A stretch of DNA of 64,000 bases from Bacteroidales bacterium (GCA_045640185.1 JAZUEN010000053.1:6289-70288), one strand, 5' to 3'; counted from the first letter of the stretch, positions 31,426 through 42,548 are shown. Numbers and translations: made by a program. Notes: generated by a model from the letters alone, not told the origin.

Positions 31426-32772
31426 CTATATCACCAAAGCATTATCGCCCTTTATCAGCTTATACAAATCCATAGCATACAAGTCGGTCGTTCCGGATAT
31501 GAAGTCGAGCGTTGAACGGCACTTTCCGTAAACTGAATCGGTTTCGGTCTTGTACTGCTCTGGAATGAGCTGCAGAAGCTTGCGCGAATAATTCGACTTC
31601 GGGTCCATGGTTGCCTGCAGAAATTCCTCAACCAAGGTCTTCAGCACGTTGTAGCCCGTGATTTCGACCTTTACAACTGAACGGTTGTTGTATATCTTCT
31701 TTACCGACAAGTTGCTACTTTCAGCATACTCTGTCTCGATTTTTTCGGGCAGATTCTTGACAAGCGAGCCTGTGAAGGTGCCATTCATGATGGCCTCCTG
31801 ATTGTTCAGGAACACTTCGGAAGTGCGCGTCACCAGATGGTTTATGGACATGGCGCGCAAAAATGCGACAAGTTCGTTATTGTCAGTTACAACGCCCTTT
31901 ACGTCGTCGAGCTTCTTCCTGAAAATCTTTAGGTTCTCGCCATCGAAGAAGCTCGAAAGGCGCTCACGCGTCTCGTCAAACGACAGGATTCCGAGCCTGT
32001 GGGCATCCTCAATGTCCATAATCATATAAGCAATGTCGTCAGCGGCCTCCATCAGATAGGCGAGCGGGCTGCGGGCATAGATGCATTTTTCCTTGTCGAT
32101 GCACTCAAGCCCTGCCTCGGCCACTATTTTCTCGAACGCGTCCTTTTCGCTCTGGAAGAATCCGTATTTGCCCTTCTTGGTGCGCTCGGTTGACGGGAAC
32201 GGATATTTTATCATAGCCGCCAGGCATGCGTAAGTAAGCATCATGCCACCGGGCCTGCGCCCCTTGAACTGGTGTGTCAGCAGACGAATCAGGTTGGCAT
32301 TGCCCTCGAAATTTGTCAAGTCGAGCCATTCGGCCTCGGTCATCTCCGATTTCAGGCTACGCCCGTTGCCATTCTCGAAATAGTTGGATATGGCACTCTC
32401 GCCAGAGTGTCCGAAAGGCGGGTTTCCGAGGTCGTGGGCGAGCCCCGCCACCGACACAATGGTGCCCAGTTCGCCCATGAGCGGGCGCACCCTTTCATCG
32501 ACATTGGGCGAAATCCTGCTGGCCACAATGTTGCCAAGCGAACGGCTGATGCTTGCCACCTCAAGGCTGTGAGTAAGCCGGTTGTGCACAAAAACGCTTC
32601 CTGGCAGAGGAAACACCTGCGTCTTGTTTTGCAGGCGACGGAAAGGCGAGCTGAAAATCAGGCGGTCGTAGTCGCGCTGAAAGTTGGTACGTATGATTTC
32701 AATGTCGATGTCCTTGACATTTGGTTCCCTTCCGAACCGATTAGTTGACAATAACCTGCTCCAATCCATCAT
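31426..32772 (-). CDS. dgt: dGTP triphosphohydrolase-like HD-domain protein
   Basis: NRLTHSLEV and AHDLGNPPFGHSGE HD motifs. Start at the ATG overlapping the lspA stop (ATGA at 32772-32769). The longer ORF to 32916 overlaps lspA. Confidence 0.85.
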   Translation of the reverse strand: MMDWSRLLSTNRFGREPNVKDIDIEIIRTNFQRDYDRLIFSSPFRRLQNKTQVFPLPGSVFVHNRLTHSLEVASISRSLGNIVASRISPNVDERVRPLMGELGTIVSVAGLAHDLGNPPFGHSGESAISNYFENGNGRSLKSEMTEAEWLDLTNFEGNANLIRLLTHQFKGRRPGGMMLTYACLAAMIKYPFPSTERTKKGKYGFFQSEKDAFEKIVAEAGLECIDKEKCIYARSPLAYLMEAADDIAYMIMDIEDAHRLGILSFDETRERLSSFFDGENLKIFRKKLDDVKGVVTDNNELVAFLRAMSINHLVTRTSEVFLNNQEAIMNGTFTGSLVKNLPEKIETEYAESSNLSVKKIYNNRSVVKVEITGYNVLKTLVEEFLQATMDPKSNYSRKLLQLIPEQYKTETDSVYGKCRSTLDFISGTTDLYAMDLYKLIKGDNALVI

Positions 32773-33392
32773 TTCTCGAGTTCTTTTTGAAGTGTCTTGC
32801 GTTCGAACAGCAACATCCATATCACGCCACAGGTTATGGCAGAATCGGCGATGTTGAATATTGGACGGAAGAATATGAATTCCTCGCCCGGATGAAATGG
32901 CGACCACGCTGGCCAATGCGCCTCAATAAGAGGAAAATAGAGCATATCGACCACCCGGCCTTGCAGAAATCCTGAATATCCTGTGCCGAATGGGACAAAT
33001 GACGCCAAATTATTCCAGCTGTCGTTGAATATCAGCCCATAAAAGGCGCAATCGAATATGTTGCCGGCGGCTCCCGCCATAATCATTGTCACACAGATGA
33101 AATAGCCCATCGGGACAGCATTTGCAGCACGTCGTGAAAGACGATGCAAGTAGTAGATGATAAGGCCGACCATTGCCAGCCTGAAAATGCTCAGCAGATA
33201 TTTGCCAACCTGTCCGAACAGCTCTATTCCAAAAGCCATTCCGTTGTTTTCGGTGAAATGGATTATGAACCAATTGCCGAAGATGTGTATCTCCTCGCCA
33301 ATCATCATGTGGGTCTTGATCCATATTTTCAGTGCCTGGTCGGCGGCAAGAATCAAGACGGCCAATAGGATTGCCAGTTTACCTTTGCTCAT
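32769..33392 (-). CDS. lspA: lipoprotein signal peptidase II
   Basis: ADQALKIWI, NNGMAFG and VVDMLYFP...FNIADS motifs. Four TM segments. Confidence 0.9.
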   Translation of the reverse strand: MSKGKLAILLAVLILAADQALKIWIKTHMMIGEEIHIFGNWFIIHFTENNGMAFGIELFGQVGKYLLSIFRLAMVGLIIYYLHRLSRRAANAVPMGYFICVTMIMAGAAGNIFDCAFYGLIFNDSWNNLASFVPFGTGYSGFLQGRVVDMLYFPLIEAHWPAWSPFHPGEEFIFFRPIFNIADSAITCGVIWMLLFERKTLQKELEK

Positions 33393-33575: not shown

Positions 33576-33965
33576 CTATTTCTTGCTTGCGTTTTTTGCC
33601 TCGACGCTCAATGTTGCATGAGGCACAGCGCGAAGGCGCTCTTTGGGAATGAGCTGACCTGTCTCACGGCAAATGCCATAGGTCTTATTCTCAATGCGTA
33701 CCAAAGCCGCTTTAAGGTGTTGAATAAACTTCTCCTGATGCTGCGCAAGACGACCTGTCTCTTCACGTGAAAGAACGCTTGCTCCTTCTTCCAAAACCTT
33801 GAAGGTTGGTGATGTATCAAGAGTGTCGTTGCCATCAGTGTGTGCGAGAGTTTTGCATAGCACTTCGTATTCTTCTTGGGCTTGTGCCAACTTTTCAAGA
33901 ATAATCTGCTTAAACTCTGCTAATTCTTCGTCAGAATATCTGACTTTTGGTTGTTCATCGCTCAT
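33576..33965 (-). CDS. DksA/TraR-family C4 zinc-finger protein
   Basis: Start at Met21 (MSDEQPK...). Coiled-coil region followed by C-terminal CRETGQLIPKERLRAVPHATL. Confidence 0.75.
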   Translation of the reverse strand: MSDEQPKVRYSDEELAEFKQIILEKLAQAQEEYEVLCKTLAHTDGNDTLDTSPTFKVLEEGASVLSREETGRLAQHQEKFIQHLKAALVRIENKTYGICRETGQLIPKERLRAVPHATLSVEAKNASKK

Positions 33966-34059
33966 AGTGGTATGAATTAGGTGGGCTAAAAGTAGAATTT
34001 TTGGTATGGTGTGGCTATAGCGCAACGCGTTTTTTACAACATAATTATTAACAACGGTT

Positions 34060-34380
34060 CAACAAATGCCTTGTGGCATTTGGCTATTTGCCTTTGGCAG
34101 TTAGCCACTTTTGCCTTGTGCCTTATGCCTTTTCATCTAATTTCAATTTCCCGTAGGGAAACCCCATTGGTAGAAAATGCCCATTATGCGTTTAACGGCA
34201 TTCCGTAGGAATGCGCCAATGTCGCAATGGCTCCATTCCGATGGAATGGAAATGGCTGTGATAATGCGTGTTTTCTACCGAGCGTTAATGCCTAACGGCA
34301 TTCTGTTGGAAATTGGCCTTTTGCCGTTGGCTTATGCCTTATCCCTTTTACTTTTGCCTTTCCCCTTATGCCTTTAATTT
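34060..34380. repeat. mosaic of small palindromes and T/G-rich word repeats (REP-like intergenic element)
   Basis: Hairpins AATGCCttgtGGCATT (34065-34080), CATTCCgtaGGAATG (34199-34213) and CCATTCCgatGGAATGG (34234-34250). Imperfect inverted repeat at 34169-34187 / 34261-34279. TTGCCTT / TTATGCCTT words flank both sides. Confidence 0.7.
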
Positions 34381-34491
34381 GATTGAATATGACCAATTGA
34401 AAAAAACGCAAGGGCGACGCTATGGAACGCCACCCCTGCAAGTAACTACGTAATAACCAAACGTGTTTTCTCTTATTCACCCTGTGCCATA

Positions 34492-35151
34492 TCAAAATAT
34501 ATTAATGCTTTTTGCTGAATGTGGCTTGCTGAAAAATATATCGTTGTCCATCGTAATAACCTCATTCGTGCTGTCGTTTCTGACTGTCAAGACATAATGC
34601 GCATTTCTTTTATAGTCAACCTCGAACGTATGCGATCCTTTATCGCCGATTACAGAATCGATTGGTGTTTGCAGATTGTTTTTGTTGTACAAGAACGCTG
34701 TGCTTCTGCTAGTTTCCTTTATAGTACAGGATATTCGGCACTGTCTTTTGCCAAGCATTCCTGAAGTATCGGTACTTGGACGGTATAAATCAATATAATC
34801 TATATAGCTATATGTGTCGTTATCGCCGTTGTACTCTTCCTTCGAAACCTTTTTATTGATAGTGCAAAAAGCCATTTCCATTTCTCTTAATTTTAACTCT
34901 GCCGAGAAATGATATTTGCCCGACGATGGTGCAACATCTGCCGAATCAAGTAACTGATTGCTGTCGATATTGAACAAATATACCTTGCTGATTTTTTCCC
35001 GTTTATTGTTGCCAATTGTTCCTGTGTAGTCAAACACAGCAGTGCTGTCGGTTAAAGGCGTGCAAGTAGGAGAAAATACGCCTGTGTTATTGTCTGTTTC
35101 GCAAGCCGAGAGCAAGCCGACAACTGCAAATGCCAATATTAAGTGTTTCAT
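34492..35151 (-). CDS. orphan lipoprotein
   Basis: Lipobox LLSAC. 219 aa with no recognisable domain. Last gene of the ABC/GntR operon. Confidence 0.6.
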   Translation of the reverse strand: MKHLILAFAVVGLLSACETDNNTGVFSPTCTPLTDSTAVFDYTGTIGNNKREKISKVYLFNIDSNQLLDSADVAPSSGKYHFSAELKLREMEMAFCTINKKVSKEEYNGDNDTYSYIDYIDLYRPSTDTSGMLGKRQCRISCTIKETSRSTAFLYNKNNLQTPIDSVIGDKGSHTFEVDYKRNAHYVLTVRNDSTNEVITMDNDIFFSKPHSAKSINIF

Positions 35152-35219
35152 TGTTTTGTCGTTTTTGGTTAAGGAGAATTTCTGTTAATTCTCCGATTTA
35201 AATATTTTATGAATATGGG

Positions 35220-37205
35220 TTAATCTCCATAGTAAATACGGACTTTGGTAGTGCTGTCCTTTATGTAGATGTCGTCGGACAACTTTACAAGTTCTCCCTT
35301 TCTGCTGTCTGTTTCGTAATAGACTGAGTAGTGTTTCTGCGGTTTCACTTTTTCGTAGAAAAAGGCGCGATTAATATTATTTCTTTTTACAGTGTCAATG
35401 CAGACAGTTCTATCTTCATTATCAAAAAGATAGTACCAGCCATTAAACTTATCCCCGTTGAGTGTAATACTTACCACTATAATTGGCAATGTTAGGTTGT
35501 CTTCCATAAAATCACCGTACTTTGTTAAATTACAAAAAGTACTCCAGGCCAAGTTGTCGGTTAGCAATCCATATTGCCAAATGTCGTCTGCGGTCAATGA
35601 CTTTCTTTTAAACACTTTCTCAAAATATGGCTTTAAAGGCTTGCACTCGTTGTTCCATTGTTCCAAAACCGACTTGTACTCCGCGTTGGCAATGTTGGCG
35701 TGTACAAATTCGTAATATTGCTTGAACTCGTTCAGCGAACCAGCCGTCGTATTGTTGTATGGATTTGAATAATTCTTAAATTTCATCAGTCGTATATATT
35801 CACAACTAGTGTAGTGCATACTGTTTTTTGTACTGTCGGTGTAGAATAGGCAACGGCCTTGATTCGGGTTTAACGATACAACAGACGACGTTAATGCCAT
35901 ATCTGCAAAATTCCTGCTCAATCCCAGTTCTTTGGCCAATTCGTAATGGTTTTCATAAATCTCAGTGCGGGAAATAAATTTTTCATAACTGATACTATTA
36001 TTATTCCAAACACGTATTCCCAATAAATTGCACAACGAGTCAAAACTGTAGTCTGCCCTACGGCGAAGCATAACATTCTTTGCATAATCGAATGCCATTT
36101 TCGACTGCATAATGTCGTTGTCGGCCAGCGATGTGTTCTTGATAACCGAGTCGGCATACTCGCAAAGGCAAATAAATGTGTTTGCACGCGAGTATTCAAA
36201 AACGTTTTGGACATAGCGCCTATACTTCTCCGATACGGGCACATTCAGGCTGTCGAAGGCGTTTTTAATGTTTTTGGCCACGGCTTCATACGCCTCTTTT
36301 TCGCGCTTGACAAATGTGTTGTAATTCAATTTATTATTGGCATAATCGTCGCTGTATTCAATATTGATTGGGCTCCTCTTAATGTAATCCAGATTGAACG
36401 GGGTGTCACAGATATGGTCTTTTGGGTGTTCTTTCAGAATCAGCGCCATATAGTTTGCGCACAGGTTGTTGTCGGTGCCCATTGCAACATCACAGAGCCA
36501 GCCATTTTTCATTACCAATATCGTATCGCCTTGTCCTACAGTTAAATGCAGATTATTCTCGAAGTCTGAAGCAAACGGGCTGATGTAAAATTCGGCCATA
36601 TTGACCACAGGAATTTTAGCCTCATACAGGCGTCCGTAATGGTCGTCGCTTTCCACGTAGGTCATTTTTGTGCTCCAGTCGCCGAGTCGGTTGTTGTAGC
36701 AGACAAAAAGGTTTCCGTAATAGCCATTGCTACTGCCGTCGATACGGCTTGTCAGATAGCGGGACTTGCTCATATCGTTGCGCACGTATGTCCGTATAAC
36801 GGCATATCCTACTGTTGTTTGCTCCATGTTGTAGGTTGATGTGTCGCGGTCGGCAACGTTTTTAGCCTTGTTGCGCATCAGCACATCCATCTTCCAACAC
36901 AGTTTCTTGGTTTTCCCGTTCTCGGTCACCGCCAGTGTGGAGTCGTTGTCGAAAGCGACATTCAGGCTAACCTGTTCGGTGTCGCAGGTCAAAGTCAGAT
37001 TCAGGCCGTCGGCGGTGGGCTCAACCGATTGGTAATCCCATCGGTTGTTTTTGTAGATGGCCGACTCCTCGAACAGGCCGTAGGTCCAATGTCCGTTATC
37101 CTGATTGAACCAACAGCCAATGTATTGCTCAGGTATATGGCTCTTGTAGGGGTTGCACGATGCAAGCAATCCCATTAAGGCTGAAATGTATAGTATTCTT
37201 TTCAT
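35220..37205 (-). CDS. orphan large lipoprotein (661 aa)
   Basis: Lipobox LLASC. Asn/Tyr/Cys-rich with no recognisable domain. Its start overlaps the stop of the upstream mini-ORF. Confidence 0.6.
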   Translation of the reverse strand: MKRILYISALMGLLASCNPYKSHIPEQYIGCWFNQDNGHWTYGLFEESAIYKNNRWDYQSVEPTADGLNLTLTCDTEQVSLNVAFDNDSTLAVTENGKTKKLCWKMDVLMRNKAKNVADRDTSTYNMEQTTVGYAVIRTYVRNDMSKSRYLTSRIDGSSNGYYGNLFVCYNNRLGDWSTKMTYVESDDHYGRLYEAKIPVVNMAEFYISPFASDFENNLHLTVGQGDTILVMKNGWLCDVAMGTDNNLCANYMALILKEHPKDHICDTPFNLDYIKRSPINIEYSDDYANNKLNYNTFVKREKEAYEAVAKNIKNAFDSLNVPVSEKYRRYVQNVFEYSRANTFICLCEYADSVIKNTSLADNDIMQSKMAFDYAKNVMLRRRADYSFDSLCNLLGIRVWNNNSISYEKFISRTEIYENHYELAKELGLSRNFADMALTSSVVSLNPNQGRCLFYTDSTKNSMHYTSCEYIRLMKFKNYSNPYNNTTAGSLNEFKQYYEFVHANIANAEYKSVLEQWNNECKPLKPYFEKVFKRKSLTADDIWQYGLLTDNLAWSTFCNLTKYGDFMEDNLTLPIIVVSITLNGDKFNGWYYLFDNEDRTVCIDTVKRNNINRAFFYEKVKPQKHYSVYYETDSRKGELVKLSDDIYIKDSTTKVRIYYGD

Positions 37206-37384
37206 ATCTTATTGACTTTTTGTTGTTTGTGTTTATTGCGATAGATATTGGCAATCTCGTCAATGCTGATTTCAAGTTTGTCAATCTCGCCAAAGAATCG
37301 GGCAAGCAAATCGCACTTGAGTGTCTGTCTGTCCTTTGGACGACTTGTGGTGGCGACTTTCGCCCCGTCAACTATGCCTTTCAT
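37202..37384 (-). CDS. truncated paralog of the C-terminal ~50 aa of the adjacent GntR/YtrA regulator (no wHTH)
   Basis: VDGAK...LARFFGEIDKLEISIDEIANIYRNKHKQ aligns with AEGAK...LPEFFNELDMLEISIDEVVKIYKERKKQ of the 37381..37743 product. The DNA is also similar. It has 4-nt stop/start overlaps on both sides. Confidence 0.45.
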   Translation of the reverse strand: MKGIVDGAKVATTSRPKDRQTLKCDLLARFFGEIDKLEISIDEIANIYRNKHKQQKVNKI

Positions 37385-37743
37385 TGCTTTTTCCTTTCCT
37401 TATAGATTTTCACCACCTCGTCAATAGAAATTTCAAGCATATCGAGTTCGTTGAAGAATTCGGGCAACGACTCGTTCATAAAGGCCTCGCGCCGTACGGC
37501 CTTGATCTGCTCCTTTGCGCCTTCTGCCACAAAGTAGCCAATGCCTCGGCGGTTGAAAATGATGTTGTTGCTTTGCAGGAAGTCGAATGAGCGCACCACA
37601 GTGTTGGCATTCACCTCCACGTTTGATGCATACTCGCGCACCGACGGCACACGCTCGCCCTCGGGGTATATTCCTGTCAGAATCTCGTTGCAGATGCGGT
37701 CAACTATCTGCATATATATCGGTCTGCTTTCCTTAAAATCCAT
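37381..37743 (-). CDS. GntR-family transcriptional regulator, YtrA subfamily
   Basis: PIYMQIVDRI...GERVPSVREYASNVEVNANTVVRSFDFLQSNNIIFNRRGIGYFV winged HTH. Short 120-aa length is typical of YtrA. Confidence 0.85.
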   Translation of the reverse strand: MDFKESRPIYMQIVDRICNEILTGIYPEGERVPSVREYASNVEVNANTVVRSFDFLQSNNIIFNRRGIGYFVAEGAKEQIKAVRREAFMNESLPEFFNELDMLEISIDEVVKIYKERKKQ

Positions 37744-37751
37744 AACTACTG

Positions 37752-38447
37752 TTATTTACACTGTTTTACATTGCTTTTGCAGAAACTTCTGTAGGCAAGA
37801 GCCATCAATAAAGCGCTGACAATGATGCCCGCCAGAAGTTCAACCACAGAAAGGGCAAAATCGGTCTTAATAATGATATAATGATGACAGTTTTCATATA
37901 GAAGCACCAGACCAAAAGTGATTATGGCTGTCCAAATAATTGAAAATGACTTGATAAGCACACTGTTGAGCGCTCCAATGGCCAGGCATATCGCAATCAG
38001 GGCGTATGCGTGGAAATATGTGCAACAGTAGTCGGCAAAATCGAACCTGCCTCCCAAGGAACATACTTCAACAACCGCAAGCCCCACAACCGCTATCAGG
38101 AACGGGAAAACCACATAGGTAAGCAACCGTGCGGTGAATTTTTCGCAAGCGGTGGCGGGCATTGTCATAAACGATATGCAGGAGCGCTTTCGGCTTGTGT
38201 TGACTAAAGTCCGTGTCGATAGAAACCAGGTCAGGCATACGGAACCCATCTCGCATATTGTTTCATATGAGAAATAGTCGCGGGCAAACGCGCTTACGGT
38301 CCCCTCGTAAAACGCGTAGTAGGCAAAAGTAATCAGTGCCCATACTGCGTACAGACAGCCTAATACCATTATCCAATATTTGGCAGGCTCCCACTCGTGG
38401 CGGAAAACTTGCGCAAATCGGGTTTTATTAATTGTTTCGTTTTTCAT
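37752..38447 (-). CDS. multi-pass membrane protein (putative permease component, paralog B)
   Basis: Start at Met28 (MKNETINKTRFAQVFRHEWEPAKYW). About 6 hydrophobic segments. The N-terminal motif is shared with the upstream gene. Confidence 0.6.
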   Translation of the reverse strand: MKNETINKTRFAQVFRHEWEPAKYWIMVLGCLYAVWALITFAYYAFYEGTVSAFARDYFSYETICEMGSVCLTWFLSTRTLVNTSRKRSCISFMTMPATACEKFTARLLTYVVFPFLIAVVGLAVVEVCSLGGRFDFADYCCTYFHAYALIAICLAIGALNSVLIKSFSIIWTAIITFGLVLLYENCHHYIIIKTDFALSVVELLAGIIVSALLMALAYRSFCKSNVKQCK

Positions 38448-38460
38448 AATAATTCTCCTT

Positions 38461-39198
38461 TCATTTTTTCCTCGACGATATGCCGTAAATGCTCTTGCGT
38501 TTGAACAGCACCCACGAAACAGGAACAAACACGATGAAAAATGCCATCACAATTGCCAGCGACAAGACAAGCGCGTGGCTGTGGACAGGATTCGCAACAT
38601 TGTAATACTCAATGAACGGCACCGTGAACATCAGGTTGATGTGCTCTATTATGTGAGCGAATAGTATAACCAGCACGCCTGTCATCAATACCGCAAACAG
38701 AATTTTCAGGCGGTTGAACAGCGCGCCCGCAAACAGCGCCACAAGCGATATGCCTATCACAAGCGCAGTTGTCAGCATATTTCCGCACAACAGCATCTCC
38801 TTTTGCAAAAGCGCAGTCTCCTCGTTTAACTGTATGAAGTGTCGCATCGGTTCGAACACAATGAACACCAATGCGGGTAAAACCCAAAACAGCAACATTC
38901 TGCAACAGAACTTCTCGATATTTGACGCGGGCACTACCGTAAAGGGCAGAAACGCCCGTTTGTCGGTAGTATGAGCCGATACAAAAAGTGGCATTATGAA
39001 AAGCATCACGGCAGGCCAGAATATTATTGTCGTTGTTCCCAGGTCATCGGTTTTCACAAACAGCGCCACAAGCCAGGCCATTATCATCATTGCAGTGTAG
39101 GCGGTGAGCCACACCCACGAATTTGCCCATTCGTGGCGCAAGAGCAACCCGAATCGGCGTAAGTTGAATTGGTTGTTCATAGCCAAGTCCTCCATCAT
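38461..39198 (-). CDS. multi-pass membrane protein (putative permease component, paralog A)
   Basis: N-terminal motif NLRRFGLLLRHEWANSWVW. About 6 hydrophobic segments. Its start overlaps the ABC ATPase stop. Confidence 0.6.
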   Translation of the reverse strand: MMEDLAMNNQFNLRRFGLLLRHEWANSWVWLTAYTAMMIMAWLVALFVKTDDLGTTTIIFWPAVMLFIMPLFVSAHTTDKRAFLPFTVVPASNIEKFCCRMLLFWVLPALVFIVFEPMRHFIQLNEETALLQKEMLLCGNMLTTALVIGISLVALFAGALFNRLKILFAVLMTGVLVILFAHIIEHINLMFTVPFIEYYNVANPVHSHALVLSLAIVMAFFIVFVPVSWVLFKRKSIYGISSRKK

Positions 39199-40031
39199 TT
39201 ACTGAAAACCGACTGAATTTTCTCCGTCTCGGCCAAGACGGCGTTAAACAGCATTTCAATGTTGAGCGGAGTCTCGCTGTCGTCGGCCATTTTTGGGCGG
39301 ACAATGCAGTCGCCAACGCCAAATGGTAGGCTGAAAATGGTGTTTTCGGGGTGGTTGCCTACGGCGCACTCGCCAAAAACCAGATGTTGCACTATTTCCG
39401 ACACCGAATGGTTGAACAGCAACTTGCCGTCGCCAATGATGGTGATCTCGTCGATAAGGTTCTCGACGTCGCGCACCTGATGAGTTGAGATGATGACCGT
39501 CCGTTCATCGTTCATACAGCCCGACACCACCTTGCGGAATTGGCTCTTTGACGGAATATCTAGGCCGTTGGTTGGCTCGTCCATAATCAGCAACTGTGTG
39601 TTGGTTGCCAAAGCAAAGCATACAAAAGCCTTTTTCTTCTGTCCCATTGATAGCGCCTTCAGATTCATATTGCGGTTCATATTGAAGCCTGCCAGGCAAT
39701 GGTCAAGCGTCTCGTTGCTGAATTTCGGGTAGAACGGAGCATTCAACTTTATGTACTTGTCGAAAGGCATATTAGGCAAATCGAACTCTTCTGGCACAAT
39801 GAAAAGGTCGGCCAGCGCATTCGGGTTGCGCTTTTGCATATCGTAGCCATTGAACATCACTTCGCCTTTTTGCGCGAACAGAAGTCCGCTCATAAGATAT
39901 AGCAATGTCGATTTGCCAGCCCCGTTGAGTCCGAGCAAACCGTAAATTTTTCCTTCGCTGAACGACAGATTCAGGTCGCTGAACACCTTGTGTCCTTTAT
40001 AACCAAATTCTAAGTTGCCAATTGTAATCAT
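39195..40031 (-). CDS. ABC transporter ATP-binding protein
   Basis: Walker A GLNGAGKST, signature LSMGQKKK, Walker B LLIMDEPTNGLD. Confidence 0.85.
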   Translation of the reverse strand: MITIGNLEFGYKGHKVFSDLNLSFSEGKIYGLLGLNGAGKSTLLYLMSGLLFAQKGEVMFNGYDMQKRNPNALADLFIVPEEFDLPNMPFDKYIKLNAPFYPKFSNETLDHCLAGFNMNRNMNLKALSMGQKKKAFVCFALATNTQLLIMDEPTNGLDIPSKSQFRKVVSGCMNDERTVIISTHQVRDVENLIDEITIIGDGKLLFNHSVSEIVQHLVFGECAVGNHPENTIFSLPFGVGDCIVRPKMADDSETPLNIEMLFNAVLAETEKIQSVFSK

Positions 40032-40248
40032 TTTATATTTTCGTTTATTAGTGTGTTAGATGATTAGTACACTGCAAATGTAGCAATCATTTTCAATCTG
40101 CAATCATTTTCTTGAAAAATTTTGTTTGAAAATAAGGCAGTTGGCACGTGATAGTATTTTTAGTCATTGAAAATCAATGTGTTGTGCAACTGTTTTTTTG
40201 GTACGATTTAATTGCCTGAGTTGTAACATTCTATTTAATTCACAGTCA

Positions 40249-40264
40249 TATCTTTGTATCTTTG
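40249..40264 (+). promoter_or_regulatory. tandem duplicated -7 boxes (TATCTTTG x2)
   Basis: Two adjacent matches to TAnnTTTG at 40249-40256 and 40257-40264, just upstream of the 44-nt leader element and the acyltransferase ATG (40310). Confidence 0.4.
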
Positions 40265-40268
40265 TATA

Positions 40269-40312
40269 AAGGTGTGTTCTATAAATACACCGTTTAAAAA
40301 ATGCGATAAATG
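40269..40312 (+). repeat. 44-nt leader element (copy 2), ending in the acyltransferase start codon
   Basis: Matches 10447-10490 at 41 of 44 positions. Confidence 0.7.
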
Positions 40313-41329
40313 AACAAACGGCTTTACTATTTAGACAATCTGAAGGTCTTTCTTACGGCATTAGTAGTGTTCCACCACGCAAACATTCCATTTTCGCACG
40401 CGGGCGATTGGGGATACTCACCGAGCAATCCTGCAGAGTTTATTCCGAACCTTTGGCATTTCAATTCAATAAACGCCACATTCTTTATGGGATTGTTTTT
40501 CTTTATCTCGGGCTTTTTTGTTCCAGGAAGTTACGACCGTCAAGGCGGAAAAACATTCTGCTTGAAAAAACTCTTGCGGTTGGGCATTCCGTTGCTGTTG
40601 GTAACAATGATTGTCAGTTCGGCTGACCATTGCTTGTCGTTCGCTCACGTTTGGTTTGTTGAGAGTTTGCTCATTTTCAGTCTTTTATATGCATTAGTAA
40701 GACAATTTGCAAAGCCAATTGACAGCAAAAACGCCAAATCGCGACTTACAATATTGGCGATTGTAGCGTTTGCCACCGTTTTGGGATTGTTGCAATTGCT
40801 CATACGCGGTGTCAGCAATCAGGACAACTGGATAATGTTTTTGGGCTTCATAAGAATGGAACCCGCCCACTATTTGCAATATGCATCGCTGTTTGTGCTG
40901 GGGATTTTAGCATACCGACTTGGCTGGCTGGAAAAACTGAAAAACAGCATCGGAATAGGTGCCGTTATTGTCTCAATACTGTTTTGCATTGGCGACTTGC
41001 TTCGTGGCGAAAATGCTTGGGGCGGTTTTGTATGGCATTGGTTCGGGATGTACGAGGCGTTTATGTGCGTGTCTATCTGCATTGCGCTGATTTGGATTTT
41101 CCGCGAATTTGGAAATTGGTCGGGCAGTTTTTGGAAATGGTGTTCCGCTCAAACGTACGGCGCATATATATTTCACCTATTTGTTTTGTTGTCAATAGAA
41201 TACGCTATGGACAGCGTTGCAATGCCTGTCTTTTTGAAATTCATTCTCGAAGGCTCTTTGGCTACAGTTTTTTCATTTGCAATAACGTGGCTATTCCGAC
41301 TTATACCAGGCGTGAAGAAAGTGCTGTAA
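40310..41329 (+). CDS. acyltransferase family 3 membrane protein
   Basis: YYLDNLKVFLTALVVFHHA N-terminal motif. About 10 TM segments. Length 339 aa. Confidence 0.8.
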   Translation: MNKRLYYLDNLKVFLTALVVFHHANIPFSHAGDWGYSPSNPAEFIPNLWHFNSINATFFMGLFFFISGFFVPGSYDRQGGKTFCLKKLLRLGIPLLLVTMIVSSADHCLSFAHVWFVESLLIFSLLYALVRQFAKPIDSKNAKSRLTILAIVAFATVLGLLQLLIRGVSNQDNWIMFLGFIRMEPAHYLQYASLFVLGILAYRLGWLEKLKNSIGIGAVIVSILFCIGDLLRGENAWGGFVWHWFGMYEAFMCVSICIALIWIFREFGNWSGSFWKWCSAQTYGAYIFHLFVLLSIEYAMDSVAMPVFLKFILEGSLATVFSFAITWLFRLIPGVKKVL

Positions 41330-41483: not shown

Positions 41484-42548
41484 TCATCTTTCGGCATTGT
41501 TTTTGCACTGCAATTCAAAAAATAATTTTTGAGCTTCGATTTCTTTTTTCAATTCTTCTTCGGTAGGCAAATAAAGCTTGTATTTCGAGGCAAATAACTG
41601 TTCGTTTTCGTGTAGAACCGAATATTTGGCAATTGCCTCGTCAGTATCGGAACACAAGAGAATGCCTAATGTAGGATTATCGTCTTTTGCGCGTTTAAGC
41701 TCGTCATACATACGTATATACATATCCATTTGTCCGACATCCTGATGTGTGATTTTCTTTGTCTTCAGGTCCACAAGTACAAAACACTTTAAAATGTAAT
41801 TGTAGAATACAAGGTCAATGTAATAGTCTTCTTTTTCAGTGTGTATGTGTTGCTGACGTGCCACAAAAGCATATCCTTTCCCAAGTTCCATCAAAAATTT
41901 CTGAATGTTCGATATGATGCTTGATTCTATATCAGTTTCAGAGAATGAAGATTCTTGTGAAAAGCCAAGAAATTCAGCAACAACAGGATTTTTTATGAAT
42001 TCCAGTTTGTTGTTTTGAAAATTAGCGGTCAGAGTTTTCATTTCAGCTTCCACGGGCTCTTTATTTTGGCTTGAAAGAAGTCTGTAATAATATTGTGAAC
42101 TGACGTTTCTTTGCAATGTGCGTACCGACCAAGTTTGGTCAAAAGCTTCTTTTTCGTACCAAGCACGCGCCTTTTCGTCATATACTTGAAGCAAAACAAG
42201 ATAATGCGTCCACGTTAGAAGTGTTTCAGATTTTCCAATCACTGATTGGAAAATGTTCGGATATGTCTTATAGAATTGATAAAAATTATAAATGTTTGAT
42301 TTGGTGAATCCTCTGCCATAAATCTCGGTTAGTGTTTTAGAAACATTGCCCATAATTGAAGCACCATAGTCTGCGCGTTCCTTGCCTTTTAGCTCTTCTT
42401 CTGCAATGCGTTTGCCAATGAGCCAGTTACGTTGTATCAAAACAACATTGACAGTAGAATGAACAATTTTTTGGGCTTGGTCAATAATGGAACGCAAATC
42501 TGAAATCATATCCAGACTTTCTTTATACTCAACAACTTCCGTTTCCAT
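41484..42548 (-). CDS. PDDEXK nuclease-domain protein, YhcG/DUF1016 family
   Basis: N-terminal VNVVLIQRNWLIGKRI... and C-terminal YYIDLVFYNYILKCFVLVDLKTKK (PD-(D/E)xK-like) pattern. Confidence 0.7.
   Translation of the reverse strand: METEVVEYKESLDMISDLRSIIDQAQKIVHSTVNVVLIQRNWLIGKRIAEEELKGKERADYGASIMGNVSKTLTEIYGRGFTKSNIYNFYQFYKTYPNIFQSVIGKSETLLTWTHYLVLLQVYDEKARAWYEKEAFDQTWSVRTLQRNVSSQYYYRLLSSQNKEPVEAEMKTLTANFQNNKLEFIKNPVVAEFLGFSQESSFSETDIESSIISNIQKFLMELGKGYAFVARQQHIHTEKEDYYIDLVFYNYILKCFVLVDLKTKKITHQDVGQMDMYIRMYDELKRAKDDNPTLGILLCSDTDEAIAKYSVLHENEQLFASKYKLYLPTEEELKKEIEAQKLFFELQCKNNAER

Follow-up and report, generated by a model that had tools for sequence, protein, structure and literature searches.

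YtrA-type regulators of the GntR family recognise a 24-bp motif, dimerise via two C-terminal helices and autorepress ABC transporter operons; a ligand pocket is without proof for them, and YtrA of Bacillus subtilis is linked to cell-envelope stress (PMC6746942). In Staphylococcus aureus, the repressor PmtR is released by amphipathic substrates of the pump PmtABCD, i.e. of its own transporter (PMC5080381). In Porphyromonas gingivalis, the genes PGN_1343-1349 are induced together as one block, both by the two-component system HaeSR and in the oral cavity of rats (PMC3764172, PMC4493947, PMC8757827).

Gene order and conservation

The locus described here belongs to an uncultured rumen Bacteroidales bacterium and lies in a window of 64,000 nt (the whole stretch of DNA that was analysed). 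An original prediction made from the sequence had described seven minus-strand ORFs as a tightly coupled operon. The ORF listing recovered all seven, and their coordinates bore out every junction:

39195..40031, minus strand: ABC ATPase, 278 aa (Pfam ABC_tran, E 2.7e-22)
38461..39198, minus strand: permease 1, 245 aa, six transmembrane helices (TM), predicted divergent ABC-2/type V fold (AlphaFold2 and Foldseek)
37752..38447, minus strand: permease 2, 231 aa, paralog of permease 1 (alignment)
37381..37743, minus strand: predicted YtrA-subfamily GntR repressor, 120 aa (Pfam and PDB matches)
37202..37384, minus strand: mini-ORF, 60 aa, stand-alone copy of the repressor C-terminal helices without the winged helix (alignment to GntR)
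35220..37205, minus strand: 661-aa lipoprotein (AlphaFold2 model, family alignment)
34492..35151, minus strand: 219-aa lipoprotein with a DUF4369 domain (Pfam)

Three junctions are 4-nt overlaps (39195-39198, 37381-37384 and 37202-37205), and the gaps at the other three are 13, 8 and 68 nt, the last one preceding the 219-aa gene. Two of the overlaps have the form ATGA and join the GntR gene, the mini-ORF and the 661-aa lipoprotein gene.

Gene-neighbourhood conservation, proposed as a check in the original prediction, was found at three levels. The identical gene order was present in 11 of 15 other genomes of the same genus and in a second, paralogous copy within the host genome; other Bacteroidales from gut and rumen contributed 28 loci. 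Because of this recurrence, the layout is not a product of chance. A core order of operator, ATPase, permease(s) and YtrA-type GntR recurs across Bacteroidota. The position of the regulator in the middle of the operon, which had been regarded as unusual, is therefore normal for the phylum, with cargo genes added behind it.

The cargo varied phylum-wide: lipocalin-type lipoproteins, WCxPC thioredoxin proteins, DUF4369 proteins, second ABC sets, an outer-membrane barrel with a TraB-family protein and, in Bacteroides, a 267-aa anchored protein. The host genome holds four paralogous cores, each with different cargo. When the seven proteins were searched with the anti-phage defence models of PADLOC, only generic ATPase matches were obtained, and none for the other six.

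ATPase and permeases

The ATPase carries a Walker A motif (GLNGAGKST), a signature motif (LSMGQ), a Walker B motif (LLIMDEP) and an H-loop (STHQ). The Q-loop sequence is VPEE throughout the 23 distinct homologs, meaning that glutamine is replaced by glutamate family-wide. The best NCBIfam matches were lantibiotic-protection ATPases, PmtA and DrrA, all far under their cut-offs.

The two membrane proteins are paralogous, as predicted (29% identity, E 3e-9). Permease 2 starts with ATG at the same place as its relatives, fits into the family alignment and retains the invariant residues R15, P90 and E95. According to the original prediction, the two did not look like canonical ABC-2 permeases. This stands at the level of sequence models: neither had a Pfam match, ABC2_membrane models included, permease 1 had no NCBIfam match, and a Bacteroides homolog matched ABC2_membrane_3 weakly and below the cut-off (E 0.002). 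It probably does not stand for the predicted fold. In the proposed structure check, which was run for permease 1 (AlphaFold2, pLDDT 87.5, pTM 0.84), the top 22 Foldseek matches in the PDB were all type V ABC membrane domains with a probability of up to 1.0, at weak scores (E 0.08, TM ~0.5); structural matches included ABCG, NosY, CcmB, Wzm and PmtCD. The permease 1 family was present in 34 of 401 Bacteroidota genomes.

In the family alignment, the conserved permease positions were confined to the N-terminal helix and the cytoplasmic TM2-TM3 loop. In solved type V transporters, the ATPase is contacted by these two elements. The models and alignments mark the ATPase and the pair of six-helix paralogs as probable parts of a type V (ABC-2-like) exporter, which would comprise two ATPase copies and a permease heterodimer.

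Predicted repressor, operator and terminator

The GntR protein has a winged helix-turn-helix at residues 10-72 (Pfam PF00392, E 3.6e-10, 39.8 bits vs a cut-off of 27). It matched PDB 3IC7 over residues 1-116, C-terminal helices included (E 2e-40), and aligned over its full length with the solved YtrA-type structures 3IC7, 3TQN, 4R1H, 4HAM, 6SBS and 2DU9. Together with a full-length match to PmtR, this upholds its description as a YtrA-type GntR. Further subfamily features are the size of 120 aa, a C-terminal domain of ~50 aa with two helices and no larger effector domain, a palindrome of ~24 bp with distant half-sites predicted from the sequence of its own operon, and a gene located within an ABC transporter operon, if in an order that differs from the usual regulator-first layout. 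There is strong support for a YtrA-subfamily protein that would act as a dimeric repressor and is encoded in the unit it would control. From this location and the behaviour of characterised YtrA regulators, negative autoregulation would follow.

The predicted control elements of the unit were as follows:

40075..40082, minus strand: Bacteroidota-type -7 promoter box TACATTTG (TAnnTTTG; motif scan)
40050..40073, minus strand: predicted 24-bp palindromic operator AGTGTACTAATCATCTAACACACT (consensus AGTGTA-N12-TACACT, one mismatch here)
35173..35194, minus strand: hairpin between the lipoprotein genes, GGAGAATT-AACAGA-AATTCTCC, without a T-run (read from the sequence)
34407..34440, minus strand: intrinsic terminator, 15-bp stem with 8 G-C pairs, T7 (terminator scan)

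The palindrome was kept in 25 of the 26 related loci for which the ATPase 5' region was available, and all 25 had a TAnnTTTG box with the operator starting one base past it. It was also seen in other orders and classes. Within the host genome, convincing palindromes were limited to the promoters of two paralogous operons. Its length equals that of the published YtrA motif (24 bp; PMC6746942). That the promoter box directly adjoins a YtrA-type palindrome, which would lie over the likely transcription start, is a well-supported prediction.

The scan of the operon gave no second operator and no promoter box 5' of either lipoprotein gene; other minus-strand TAnnTTTG boxes occurred only at 38324 and 34975, both within coding sequence. 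The site at 34407-34440, 3' of the 219-aa gene, was the sole strong minus-strand terminator-like site within 34000-40400. The hairpin at 35173-35194 was not called by the terminator scan. In six genomes of the same genus, a terminator-like hairpin separates the GntR gene from the lipoprotein genes, which allows cargo expression to be uncoupled in part.

Mini-ORF

The original prediction had named this frame a GntR-tail mini-ORF, and the alignment agrees: identity to the GntR tail is 47% over 36 aa (E 1e-10), and the alignment spans residues 4-56. Homologous stand-alone proteins of 52 and 53 aa were found in two other lineages.

The mini-ORF may encode a small anti-repressor, i.e. a protein that would tune the repressor. 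An even chance has to be given to the alternative that it is only a recombination scar: the 3' end of a GntR gene that once accompanied the 661/219 cassette, left as a remnant when the cassette joined behind a complete GntR gene, and with no function of its own. Several observations fit a scar. The mini-ORF occurs only with the 661-aa-type cassette, its first half, the counterpart of helix 4, is degenerate with a proline in it, and its stop and the lipoprotein start overlap in just the way seen for complete GntR genes in relatives. Moreover, the DNA of the L055 copy resembles GntR tails (0.74-0.79) more than it resembles the copy in the window (0.67), which would be compatible with repeated duplication or gene conversion. 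Other observations speak against a scar. Three lineages have kept the frame open and with an ATG of its own, while their flanking genes are saturated at synonymous sites. Every conserved residue of the last ~28 GntR positions is retained. Synonymous changes affected 13.5 of 17.5 sites vs 22.5 of 72.5 for nonsynonymous changes (Fisher p 0.0004), and the nonsynonymous/synonymous ratio against GntR tails was 0.3-0.6. Finally, the motifs LLxxFF and N[IV]Y are common to the three mini-proteins and absent from the GntR tails compared.

Lipoproteins

The original prediction of two orphan lipoproteins with no recognisable motif did not hold. The 219-aa protein has a DUF4369 domain (PF14289) at residues 139-198, which is marginal (27.5 bits vs a gathering cut-off of 25); relatives of this small lipoprotein score 34-37 bits. 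The 661-aa protein is a member of a family linked to the module: at 23 or more of 28 related loci, such a protein is encoded directly behind GntR, and within the genus the family was tied to the module in all 11 genomes with matches. Its predicted domains are a lipocalin-like barrel at the N-terminus (~30-104), a beta-sandwich (~133-243), a helical region (~247-563) and a DUF4369-like beta-sandwich (~575-660). In the structure check, the AlphaFold2 model (pLDDT 68.7) gave Foldseek matches at the domain level only. In another family (L024), the N-terminal domain has homologs that lie outside the module.

Both proteins have a lipobox (LLAS-C and LLSA-C). Neither has an acidic surface-export signal after the lipid-modified cysteine; therefore, they probably face the periplasm. 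Foldseek and profile comparisons gave no recognisable binding or catalytic site. Some members of the 661-aa family end in TlpA-like thioredoxin domains, which have the WCxPC motif in distant homologs and no cysteines in others. A WCxPC TlpA-like domain also occurs in separate proteins of ~720 aa in the operons of relatives, a family that hhalign did not relate to that of the 661-aa protein (probability 2.4%). An identity as TlpA-like thioredoxin lipoproteins was rejected for both window proteins, as Pfam and the structure model gave no CxxC thioredoxin-fold domain in either.

In the relative P0002, a 219-aa-type protein is fused to a 661-aa-type protein (E 9e-29). Conserved synteny, the ATGA overlaps, the single operator, the single terminator and this natural fusion agree with the original view of one YtrA-type ABC-linked operon to which the lipoproteins are coupled. 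Judged by these sequence features, the two lipoproteins are, with strong support, dedicated partners of the module.

Function of the unit

The explanation that we favour, with moderate confidence, is that the seven genes form one self-repressed transcription unit for an inducible envelope-protection exporter with periplasmic accessory lipoproteins. A membrane-active amphipathic compound (of peptide, bacteriocin or ionophore type) or envelope damage would relieve repression, by analogy with the release of PmtR by phenol-soluble modulins. The pump would then expel or extract the compound, and the periplasm-facing lipoproteins would bind or neutralise it or help the pump. Across relatives, the cytoplasmic parts were conserved (GntR ~70-83% and ATPase ~67% identical), whereas the envelope-exposed permeases and lipoproteins diverged fast (~24-44% identical). 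This fits adaptation to variable external ligands. Against the explanation, the ATPase and GntR are far below the NCBIfam cut-offs for Pmt and lantibiotic systems. The weak Foldseek scores of the permease, the lack of a recognisable site in the lipoproteins and the hairpins behind GntR in six same-genus genomes count against it as well. The phylum-wide cargo diversity fits a general regulatory cassette as well as a dedicated pump.

Such a cassette is the next reading, which we consider unlikely. The ATPase/permease/GntR core would sense the envelope state and control its own promoter, pumping no toxic compound; on this unlikely reading, the downstream envelope genes would be passengers under stress-responsive control, without physical contact to the transporter. 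The diverse cargo, the four paralogous cores of the host genome and the unproven ligand pocket of YtrA regulators (PMC6746942) are in line with it. However, the permeases diverge as fast as the cargo, which is unexpected for a generic sensor, the lipoprotein family is module-linked in all 11 genomes with matches, and ATGA overlaps join the GntR gene, the mini-ORF and the lipoprotein gene.

A periplasmic redox or maturation system appears quite improbable. Here, the ABC transporter would energise exported thioredoxin-fold partners or provide them with a thiol or cofactor, in the manner of CcmAB with CcmG or NosFY with NosL, and the window lipoproteins would be thioredoxin-less partners. The canonical WCxPC domains in 661-aa relatives and ~720-aa proteins point in this direction, as do a CVYC protein in a paralogous module of the host genome and the permease matches to CcmB and NosY. 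They are opposed by the lack of a thioredoxin domain in the operon, the cysteine-less domains of some family members, the unrelatedness of the ~720-aa family and the lack of haem, copper or thiol-handling genes nearby.

That the lipoprotein genes are an unrelated unit merely downstream is the least credible reading: the 68-nt gap and hairpin ahead of the 219-aa gene, the terminator-like elements in six relatives and the homologs outside the module (L024) are outweighed by the two ATGA overlaps, the lack of a promoter box 5' of either gene, the sole strong terminator after the last gene, the conserved synteny and the lipoprotein fusion.

Comparison with known systems

The favoured self-repressed exporter shares with B. 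subtilis YtrA/ytrGABCDEF a short GntR (~120-130 aa) whose dimerisation domain has two helices, a palindromic operator of ~24 bp (predicted here) and autorepression of an ABC transporter operon (which would apply here). In B. subtilis, the regulator leads the operon, whereas here it follows the ATPase and permease genes. This locus encodes one ATPase and two small permeases that are paralogs and match no Pfam model; lipoprotein cargo and a mini-protein with the dimerisation domain only are added to these, and the host is a Gram-negative Bacteroidales.

The likeness to PmtR-PmtABCD of S. aureus lies in the full-length alignment of GntR with PmtR (E 3e-13), in PmtA among the best ATPase matches and in PmtCD among the structural permease matches. 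Membership was rejected at the NCBIfam equivalog cut-offs (PmtR 49.8 bits vs 200, PmtA 114 bits vs 350). Here, there is one ATPase rather than two, the gene order is different, no toxin genes are nearby and lipoproteins are added.

LanFEG with LanI (e.g. NisFEG with NisI) likewise combines a pump of the ABC-2 type with a dedicated lipoprotein at the external side of the membrane, and the lantibiotic-protection family is the best ATPase model match. Membership was rejected here as well (TIGR03740, 120 bits vs a cut-off of 310; no LanI-like match for either lipoprotein). This locus differs in having no lantibiotic synthesis cluster, lipoproteins unrelated to LanI and a YtrA-type GntR instead of a two-component system.

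SinI of B. subtilis is a small protein that resembles only the oligomerisation domain of the neighbouring repressor SinR and inactivates SinR by forming a heterodimer. It is an analogy for the mini-ORF only, whose product likewise resembles the oligomerisation domain of the adjacent repressor and might act in a similar way. The SinI/SinR family is Xre-type, and the repressor here is a GntR. SinI is expressed from a regulated promoter of its own; the mini-ORF lies behind the repressor gene and is coupled to it in translation.

PDB 3IC7, a solved 126-aa putative transcriptional regulator, is a template for the repressor and for the part copied by the mini-ORF. It is a structural-genomics entry of no published function, and the database lists neither source organism nor context nor operator for it. 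By annotation only, P. gingivalis PGN_1343-1349 (PG1010-PG1004) follows the same order: an ATPase, two inner-membrane proteins, a GntR (PG1007), an exported protein and a lipoprotein. Its induction as a block offers a precedent for co-regulation of such a unit. The cargo there differs (a TonB-dependent-receptor-like protein, a lipoprotein and a peptidase). The design is already known, and what is new is this variant with its possible small anti-repressor.

Operon structure and promoter

The operon (34492–40031) comprises seven minus-strand genes, in the order ATPase, permease 1, permease 2, YtrA-type GntR repressor, mini-ORF (60 aa), 661-aa lipoprotein and 219-aa lipoprotein. The genes and every junction of the original prediction were reproduced by the ORF list and by reading the sequence. 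Overlaps of 4 nt (ATGA) connect ATPase and permease 1, GntR and mini-ORF, and mini-ORF and 661-aa lipoprotein gene. Gaps of 13 and 8 nt flank the permease 2 gene, and a 68-nt gap precedes the 219-aa lipoprotein gene.

Transcription signals of the operon
40075–40082, minus strand: −7 box TACATTTG of the Bacteroidota type, 5' of the ATPase gene
40050–40073, minus strand: palindrome AGTGTACTAATCATCTAACACACT, one base after the −7 box
34407–34440, minus strand: terminator just 3' of the 219-aa gene (15-bp stem, T7), the region's only strong one on this strand

The arrangement of TAnnTTTG, one base and AGTGTA-N12-TACACT was kept in 25 of the 26 related loci for which the 5' region was available, and the spacer base was C with the exception of one locus. 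The arrangement extended to Bacteroides and Mediterranea loci and was found in genomes from other orders and classes as well. YtrA-type repressors are characterised by a 24-bp palindrome whose half-sites lie far apart and which spans the transcription start (PMC6746942). From its sequence, the inverted repeat is taken to be the conserved operator. The genome of the window contained four motif sites with at most one mismatch: two were the promoters of the window operon and of a paralogous operon, and the remaining two were no better than the level of the reversed-pattern control. A search for a second operator ahead of the lipoprotein genes found none, and the other minus-strand TAnnTTTG boxes of the operon all lay within coding sequence. 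On this evidence, the YtrA-type repressor and ABC genes form one unit, predicted to be self-repressed, with envelope proteins dedicated to it.

Directly upstream of the −7 box, a 12-nt exact direct repeat (GAAAATGATTGC, two copies, 40083–40111) covers the −33 region. It was rejected as a conserved repressor site because it is limited to the window lineage and its 97% relative, with no copy in the other loci. A second regulator, specific to this lineage, may bind there.

ATPase and permeases

All ABC motifs were present in the ATPase, which was nearest to ABC-2-type exporter ATPases (lantibiotic protection, PmtA, DrrA) and far under every family cut-off. Its Q-loop reads VPEE, not VPQE (residues ~79–82 of the ATPase), and this held in 23 of 23 distinct homologs of the module (VPEEF[DE]LP).

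The two membrane proteins are paralogous (29% identity, E 3e-9). They had been described as not looking like canonical ABC-2 permeases. This stood at the sequence level, where neither had a match in Pfam, NCBIfam or PDB sequences, but not for the predicted fold. For permease 1, the PDB sequence profile search was empty, and a word-based protein search gave only a 98% relative. Its AlphaFold2 model was confident (pLDDT 87.5, pTM 0.84), and the best 22 Foldseek matches in the PDB were all type V ABC membrane domains (ABCG25, NosY, ABCG5/8, ABCG2, CcmB, Wzm), with TarG and PmtCD further down the list. The Foldseek probability was up to 1.0, yet E was only 0.08 and TM about 0.5.

In an alignment of 39 family members drawn from related loci, the few conserved positions were an N-terminal FNxKRF helix and the motif LPASxxEKFxAR, which forms the cytoplasmic TM2–TM3 loop in the permease 1 model. 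We infer that helix and loop correspond to the ATPase-contacting elements of solved type V transporters. The glutamate of VPEE co-occurs with the invariant glutamate of the loop motif. The fold model, the conserved elements and the matching VPEE peculiarity together led us to conclude that the two proteins are the predicted divergent heterodimeric permease of the operon's ATPase. The permease family occurred in 34 of 401 sampled Bacteroidota genomes (19 of 180 genera).

Repressor and paralogous modules

The GntR protein belonged to the YtrA subfamily by every sequence test run, including the Pfam GntR domain and full-length alignment with PmtR, the Staphylococcus aureus repressor of the PmtABCD exporter. 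The best of the solved YtrA-type structures was PDB 3IC7 (E 2e-40, 116 residues). Outside Bacteroidota, YtrA genes are usually first in their operon (PMC6746942), and the mid-operon regulator had been called unusual. In Bacteroidota, however, GntR regularly comes after operator, ATPase and permease(s), an order conserved between rumen Bacteroidales and other classes. The regulator seems to be mid-operon here because lineage-specific cargo was added behind a conserved three- or four-gene core.

Modules of a YtrA-type repressor and an ABC transporter are common. The 3-Mb genome of the window held at least four paralogous modules in all, and their cargo differed.

Further modules in the genome of the window (G000), each with ATPase, two permeases and GntR
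G000:C32 (L025 5863–9925)
G000:C85 (L066 2460–5545)
G000:C20 (L067 8560–2062), minus strand

The cargoes of these three were a 446-aa lipoprotein of the same family as the 661-aa protein, a 193-aa secreted protein (weak DUF4412) and a 349-aa membrane protein with a CVYC motif, the last followed by a 794-aa CarboxypepD_reg outer-membrane (barrel) protein. The module was accessory, with no trace in 4 of the 16 genus genomes, and not syntenic among them. Related MAGs came from the rumen of yak, sheep, buffalo, goat and deer. One rival account of the locus starts from such cargo and takes the module as a sensor cassette with passengers. It has to be set beside the recurrence of one lipoprotein family behind the repressor gene.

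Lipoproteins

Both lipoproteins carry a standard lipobox, and both had been taken as orphans. This did not hold: the 661-aa type is a module-linked family, and the 219-aa protein is a DUF4369 protein. Close relatives of the 661-aa protein were found only in the genome with 97% identity and in one Logan assembly, there at 40%; a word-based protein search returned just a 94% and a 40% relative, and two metagenome scans found no further subfamily members. A larger family is defined by the protein's N-terminal ~100 residues (signature CNPYGSxIP...GxW...FEEFAIYxNDFWxYxSV) together with the next beta-sandwich. The gene-neighbourhood check proposed originally bore out the linkage, as the order of module and lipoprotein recurred. 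A family member directly followed the GntR gene, often by ATGA overlap, in 11 of the 15 same-genus genomes besides the window's, in one further operon of the window's own genome, and at no fewer than 23 of the 28 loci in Bacteroidales MAGs of rumen and gut. Tandem duplication of the lipoprotein genes was frequent.

The AlphaFold2 model of the 661-aa protein was of medium quality (pLDDT 68.7) and comprised a lipocalin-like barrel, a beta-sandwich, a long helical region and a C-terminal beta-sandwich. Foldseek returned generic domains only (BT_0869 and YxeF lipocalin-like proteins; transthyretin- or Ig-like sandwiches) and no whole-protein fold match. The C-terminal sandwich is weakly similar to the 219-aa protein. 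Against PDB sequences, neither lipoprotein gave anything meaningful; matches of the 219-aa protein to designed Kelch proteins were set aside as compositional.

Frequent companions of the family were ~220-aa DUF4369 lipoproteins and ~720-aa secreted proteins with a canonical C-terminal WCxPC thioredoxin domain (TlpA-like; L028:7732–9885, L030:7685–9838, L036:7763–9925, and downstream in loci L040, L043, L045 and L048). The genes of the latter were inserted downstream of the lipoproteins or between the permeases and GntR. A second rival is a role in redox or maturation linked to these partners. Two members of the 661-aa family (L040, L041) have a thioredoxin domain that is cysteine-less, and homology between this family and the 720-aa proteins was rejected (hhalign probability 2.4%). 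Distant homologs of the 661-aa protein in another family carry C-terminal WCGPC thioredoxin domains. Some of these are sited away from the module, and therefore the N-terminal domain is not exclusive to it. In one locus of another Bacteroidales family (L024, G051:C14, 9218–16599), the gene for an 818-aa FtsX/MacB-like permease lies between those of two homologs of the N-terminal domain that bear thioredoxin domains, and neither a GntR nor an ATPase gene is close by; a lipoprotein of this type is tied there to another kind of ABC permease.

The third rival, lipoprotein genes that are independent, faces a natural fusion: the 40% relative (P0002) is one 864-aa protein in which a 661-type part is joined to a 219-type part (E 9e-29), which argues that the two lipoproteins work together.

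Mini-ORF

The mini-ORF copies the GntR gene but lacks its 5' part; the alignment runs from the last winged-helix strand to the C-terminus. Initial database searches returned only the mini-ORF itself, and within the family-level genome set it stood alone only in the window's genome and the 97% relative. On the contig with the fusion lipoprotein, the genes are arranged identically, and a 52-aa ORF separates the GntR gene from the lipoprotein gene. Searching 1.8 billion representative proteins by profile added a third variant (53 aa) and nothing else relevant.

The first half is degenerate. None of the residues conserved over the last ~28 positions of GntR (L, FF, E, L, I-S-I-D-E, Y) was lost from any of the three minis. 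The motifs LLxxFF and N[IV]Y were common to the three and absent from the GntR tails compared. Between the window and the fusion-lipoprotein contig, synonymous sites were saturated in all operon genes. In the last 30 codons of the mini, 13.5 of 17.5 synonymous versus 22.5 of 72.5 nonsynonymous sites had changed (p 0.0004). The kept residues, the shared motifs and this comparison are evidence that the mini-ORF is maintained; some of its evolutionary path may run via constrained GntR tails. The DNA of the mini on the fusion-lipoprotein contig was closer to GntR tails than to the window's mini, and repeated duplication or gene conversion is possible.

It is conceivable, if on balance doubtful, that the mini-ORF is a working micro-protein that pairs with full-length GntR, giving a one-headed dimer that could not stay on the 24-bp operator. 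YtrA proteins dimerise through their two C-terminal helices (PMC6746942), so a mini consisting of this domain alone could titrate full-length GntR. Predicted to share the transcript of the repressor gene and to be translationally coupled to it, the mini would make induction sharper or lock it. The model likened to this is SinI–SinR of Bacillus subtilis, in which SinI titrates SinR; the mini would do so to a GntR-family regulator. If true, this would be a built-in answer to the switching of YtrA repressors without a ligand pocket.

In six same-genus genomes, the gap between GntR and lipoprotein genes held a conserved single-copy non-coding element of ~230 nt.

Gaps with the ~230-nt element
L028:10370–10662
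L030:10358–10673
L031:10361–10690
L032:10361–10676
L035:10361–10784
L036:10367–10760

The element forms three hairpins, of which the final one is a strong terminator-like stem that has a T-run, and some of its pair changes are compensatory. It had no Rfam match and was absent from the window's genome. It takes the place that the mini-ORF has in the window's operon, so that an attenuator or a small RNA gating cargo expression is conceivable.

Genomic surroundings

The single-copy lspA gene (32769–33392), for the lipoprotein signal peptidase, was only 70–75% identical to all 15 same-genus orthologs, including the one in a relative whose neighbouring genes were 92–100% identical. The adjacent dksA-like gene (33576–33959) was 91–97% identical. 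This looks like an allelic replacement boundary at lspA/dksA, directly beside the lipoprotein operon. Among the same-genus genomes compared, the operon adjoins dksA–lspA in the window's lineage alone. The idea that it interrupts an ileS/dksA neighbourhood was dropped, as none of the other 14 same-genus genomes had ileS closer than 1.5 kb to dksA.

On the other side, a membrane-type acyltransferase gene (Acyl_transf_3; 40310–41329, plus strand) is divergent from the operon and is accompanied by two TATCTTTG boxes at 40249–40264. It is followed by a YhcG/DUF1016 PDDEXK nuclease gene (41484–42548, minus strand). The acyltransferase was present in the 97% relative; the nuclease gene was unmatched within the stretch fetched from that relative.

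Function and comparison with known systems

Over the sensor cassette, the redox role and independent lipoprotein genes, we favour an inducible pump that would protect against membrane-active compounds, with the probably periplasmic lipoproteins as binding or accessory parts. This reading draws on the conserved cytoplasmic parts versus the very fast-diverging envelope-exposed parts, on the nearness of ATPase and repressor to peptide and drug exporters, and on the precedent of PmtR, in which substrate releases the repressor. Membership in anti-phage defence was tested and rejected.

The rumen habitat is rich in bacteriocins and ionophores. If envelope protection is the true role, the four paralogous modules would be a diversified defence set against membrane-active compounds. 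The locus adds a form of the module that spans the Bacteroidota phylum, whose sharply delimited promoter/operator could serve directly as a reporter, and an unannotated permease family in about 8% of sampled Bacteroidota genomes. It also adds a module-linked lipoprotein family, for which the natural fusion argues for physical partnership, and a candidate anti-repressor micro-protein testable with two purified proteins and the 24-bp DNA.

PmtR is the sole YtrA-type case with an established natural ligand (PMC6746942), and its release by substrate has been described (PMC5080381). A Porphyromonas gingivalis cluster is co-induced as a block (PMC3764172, PMC4493947, PMC8757827); as annotated, its gene order is like that of the window operon.
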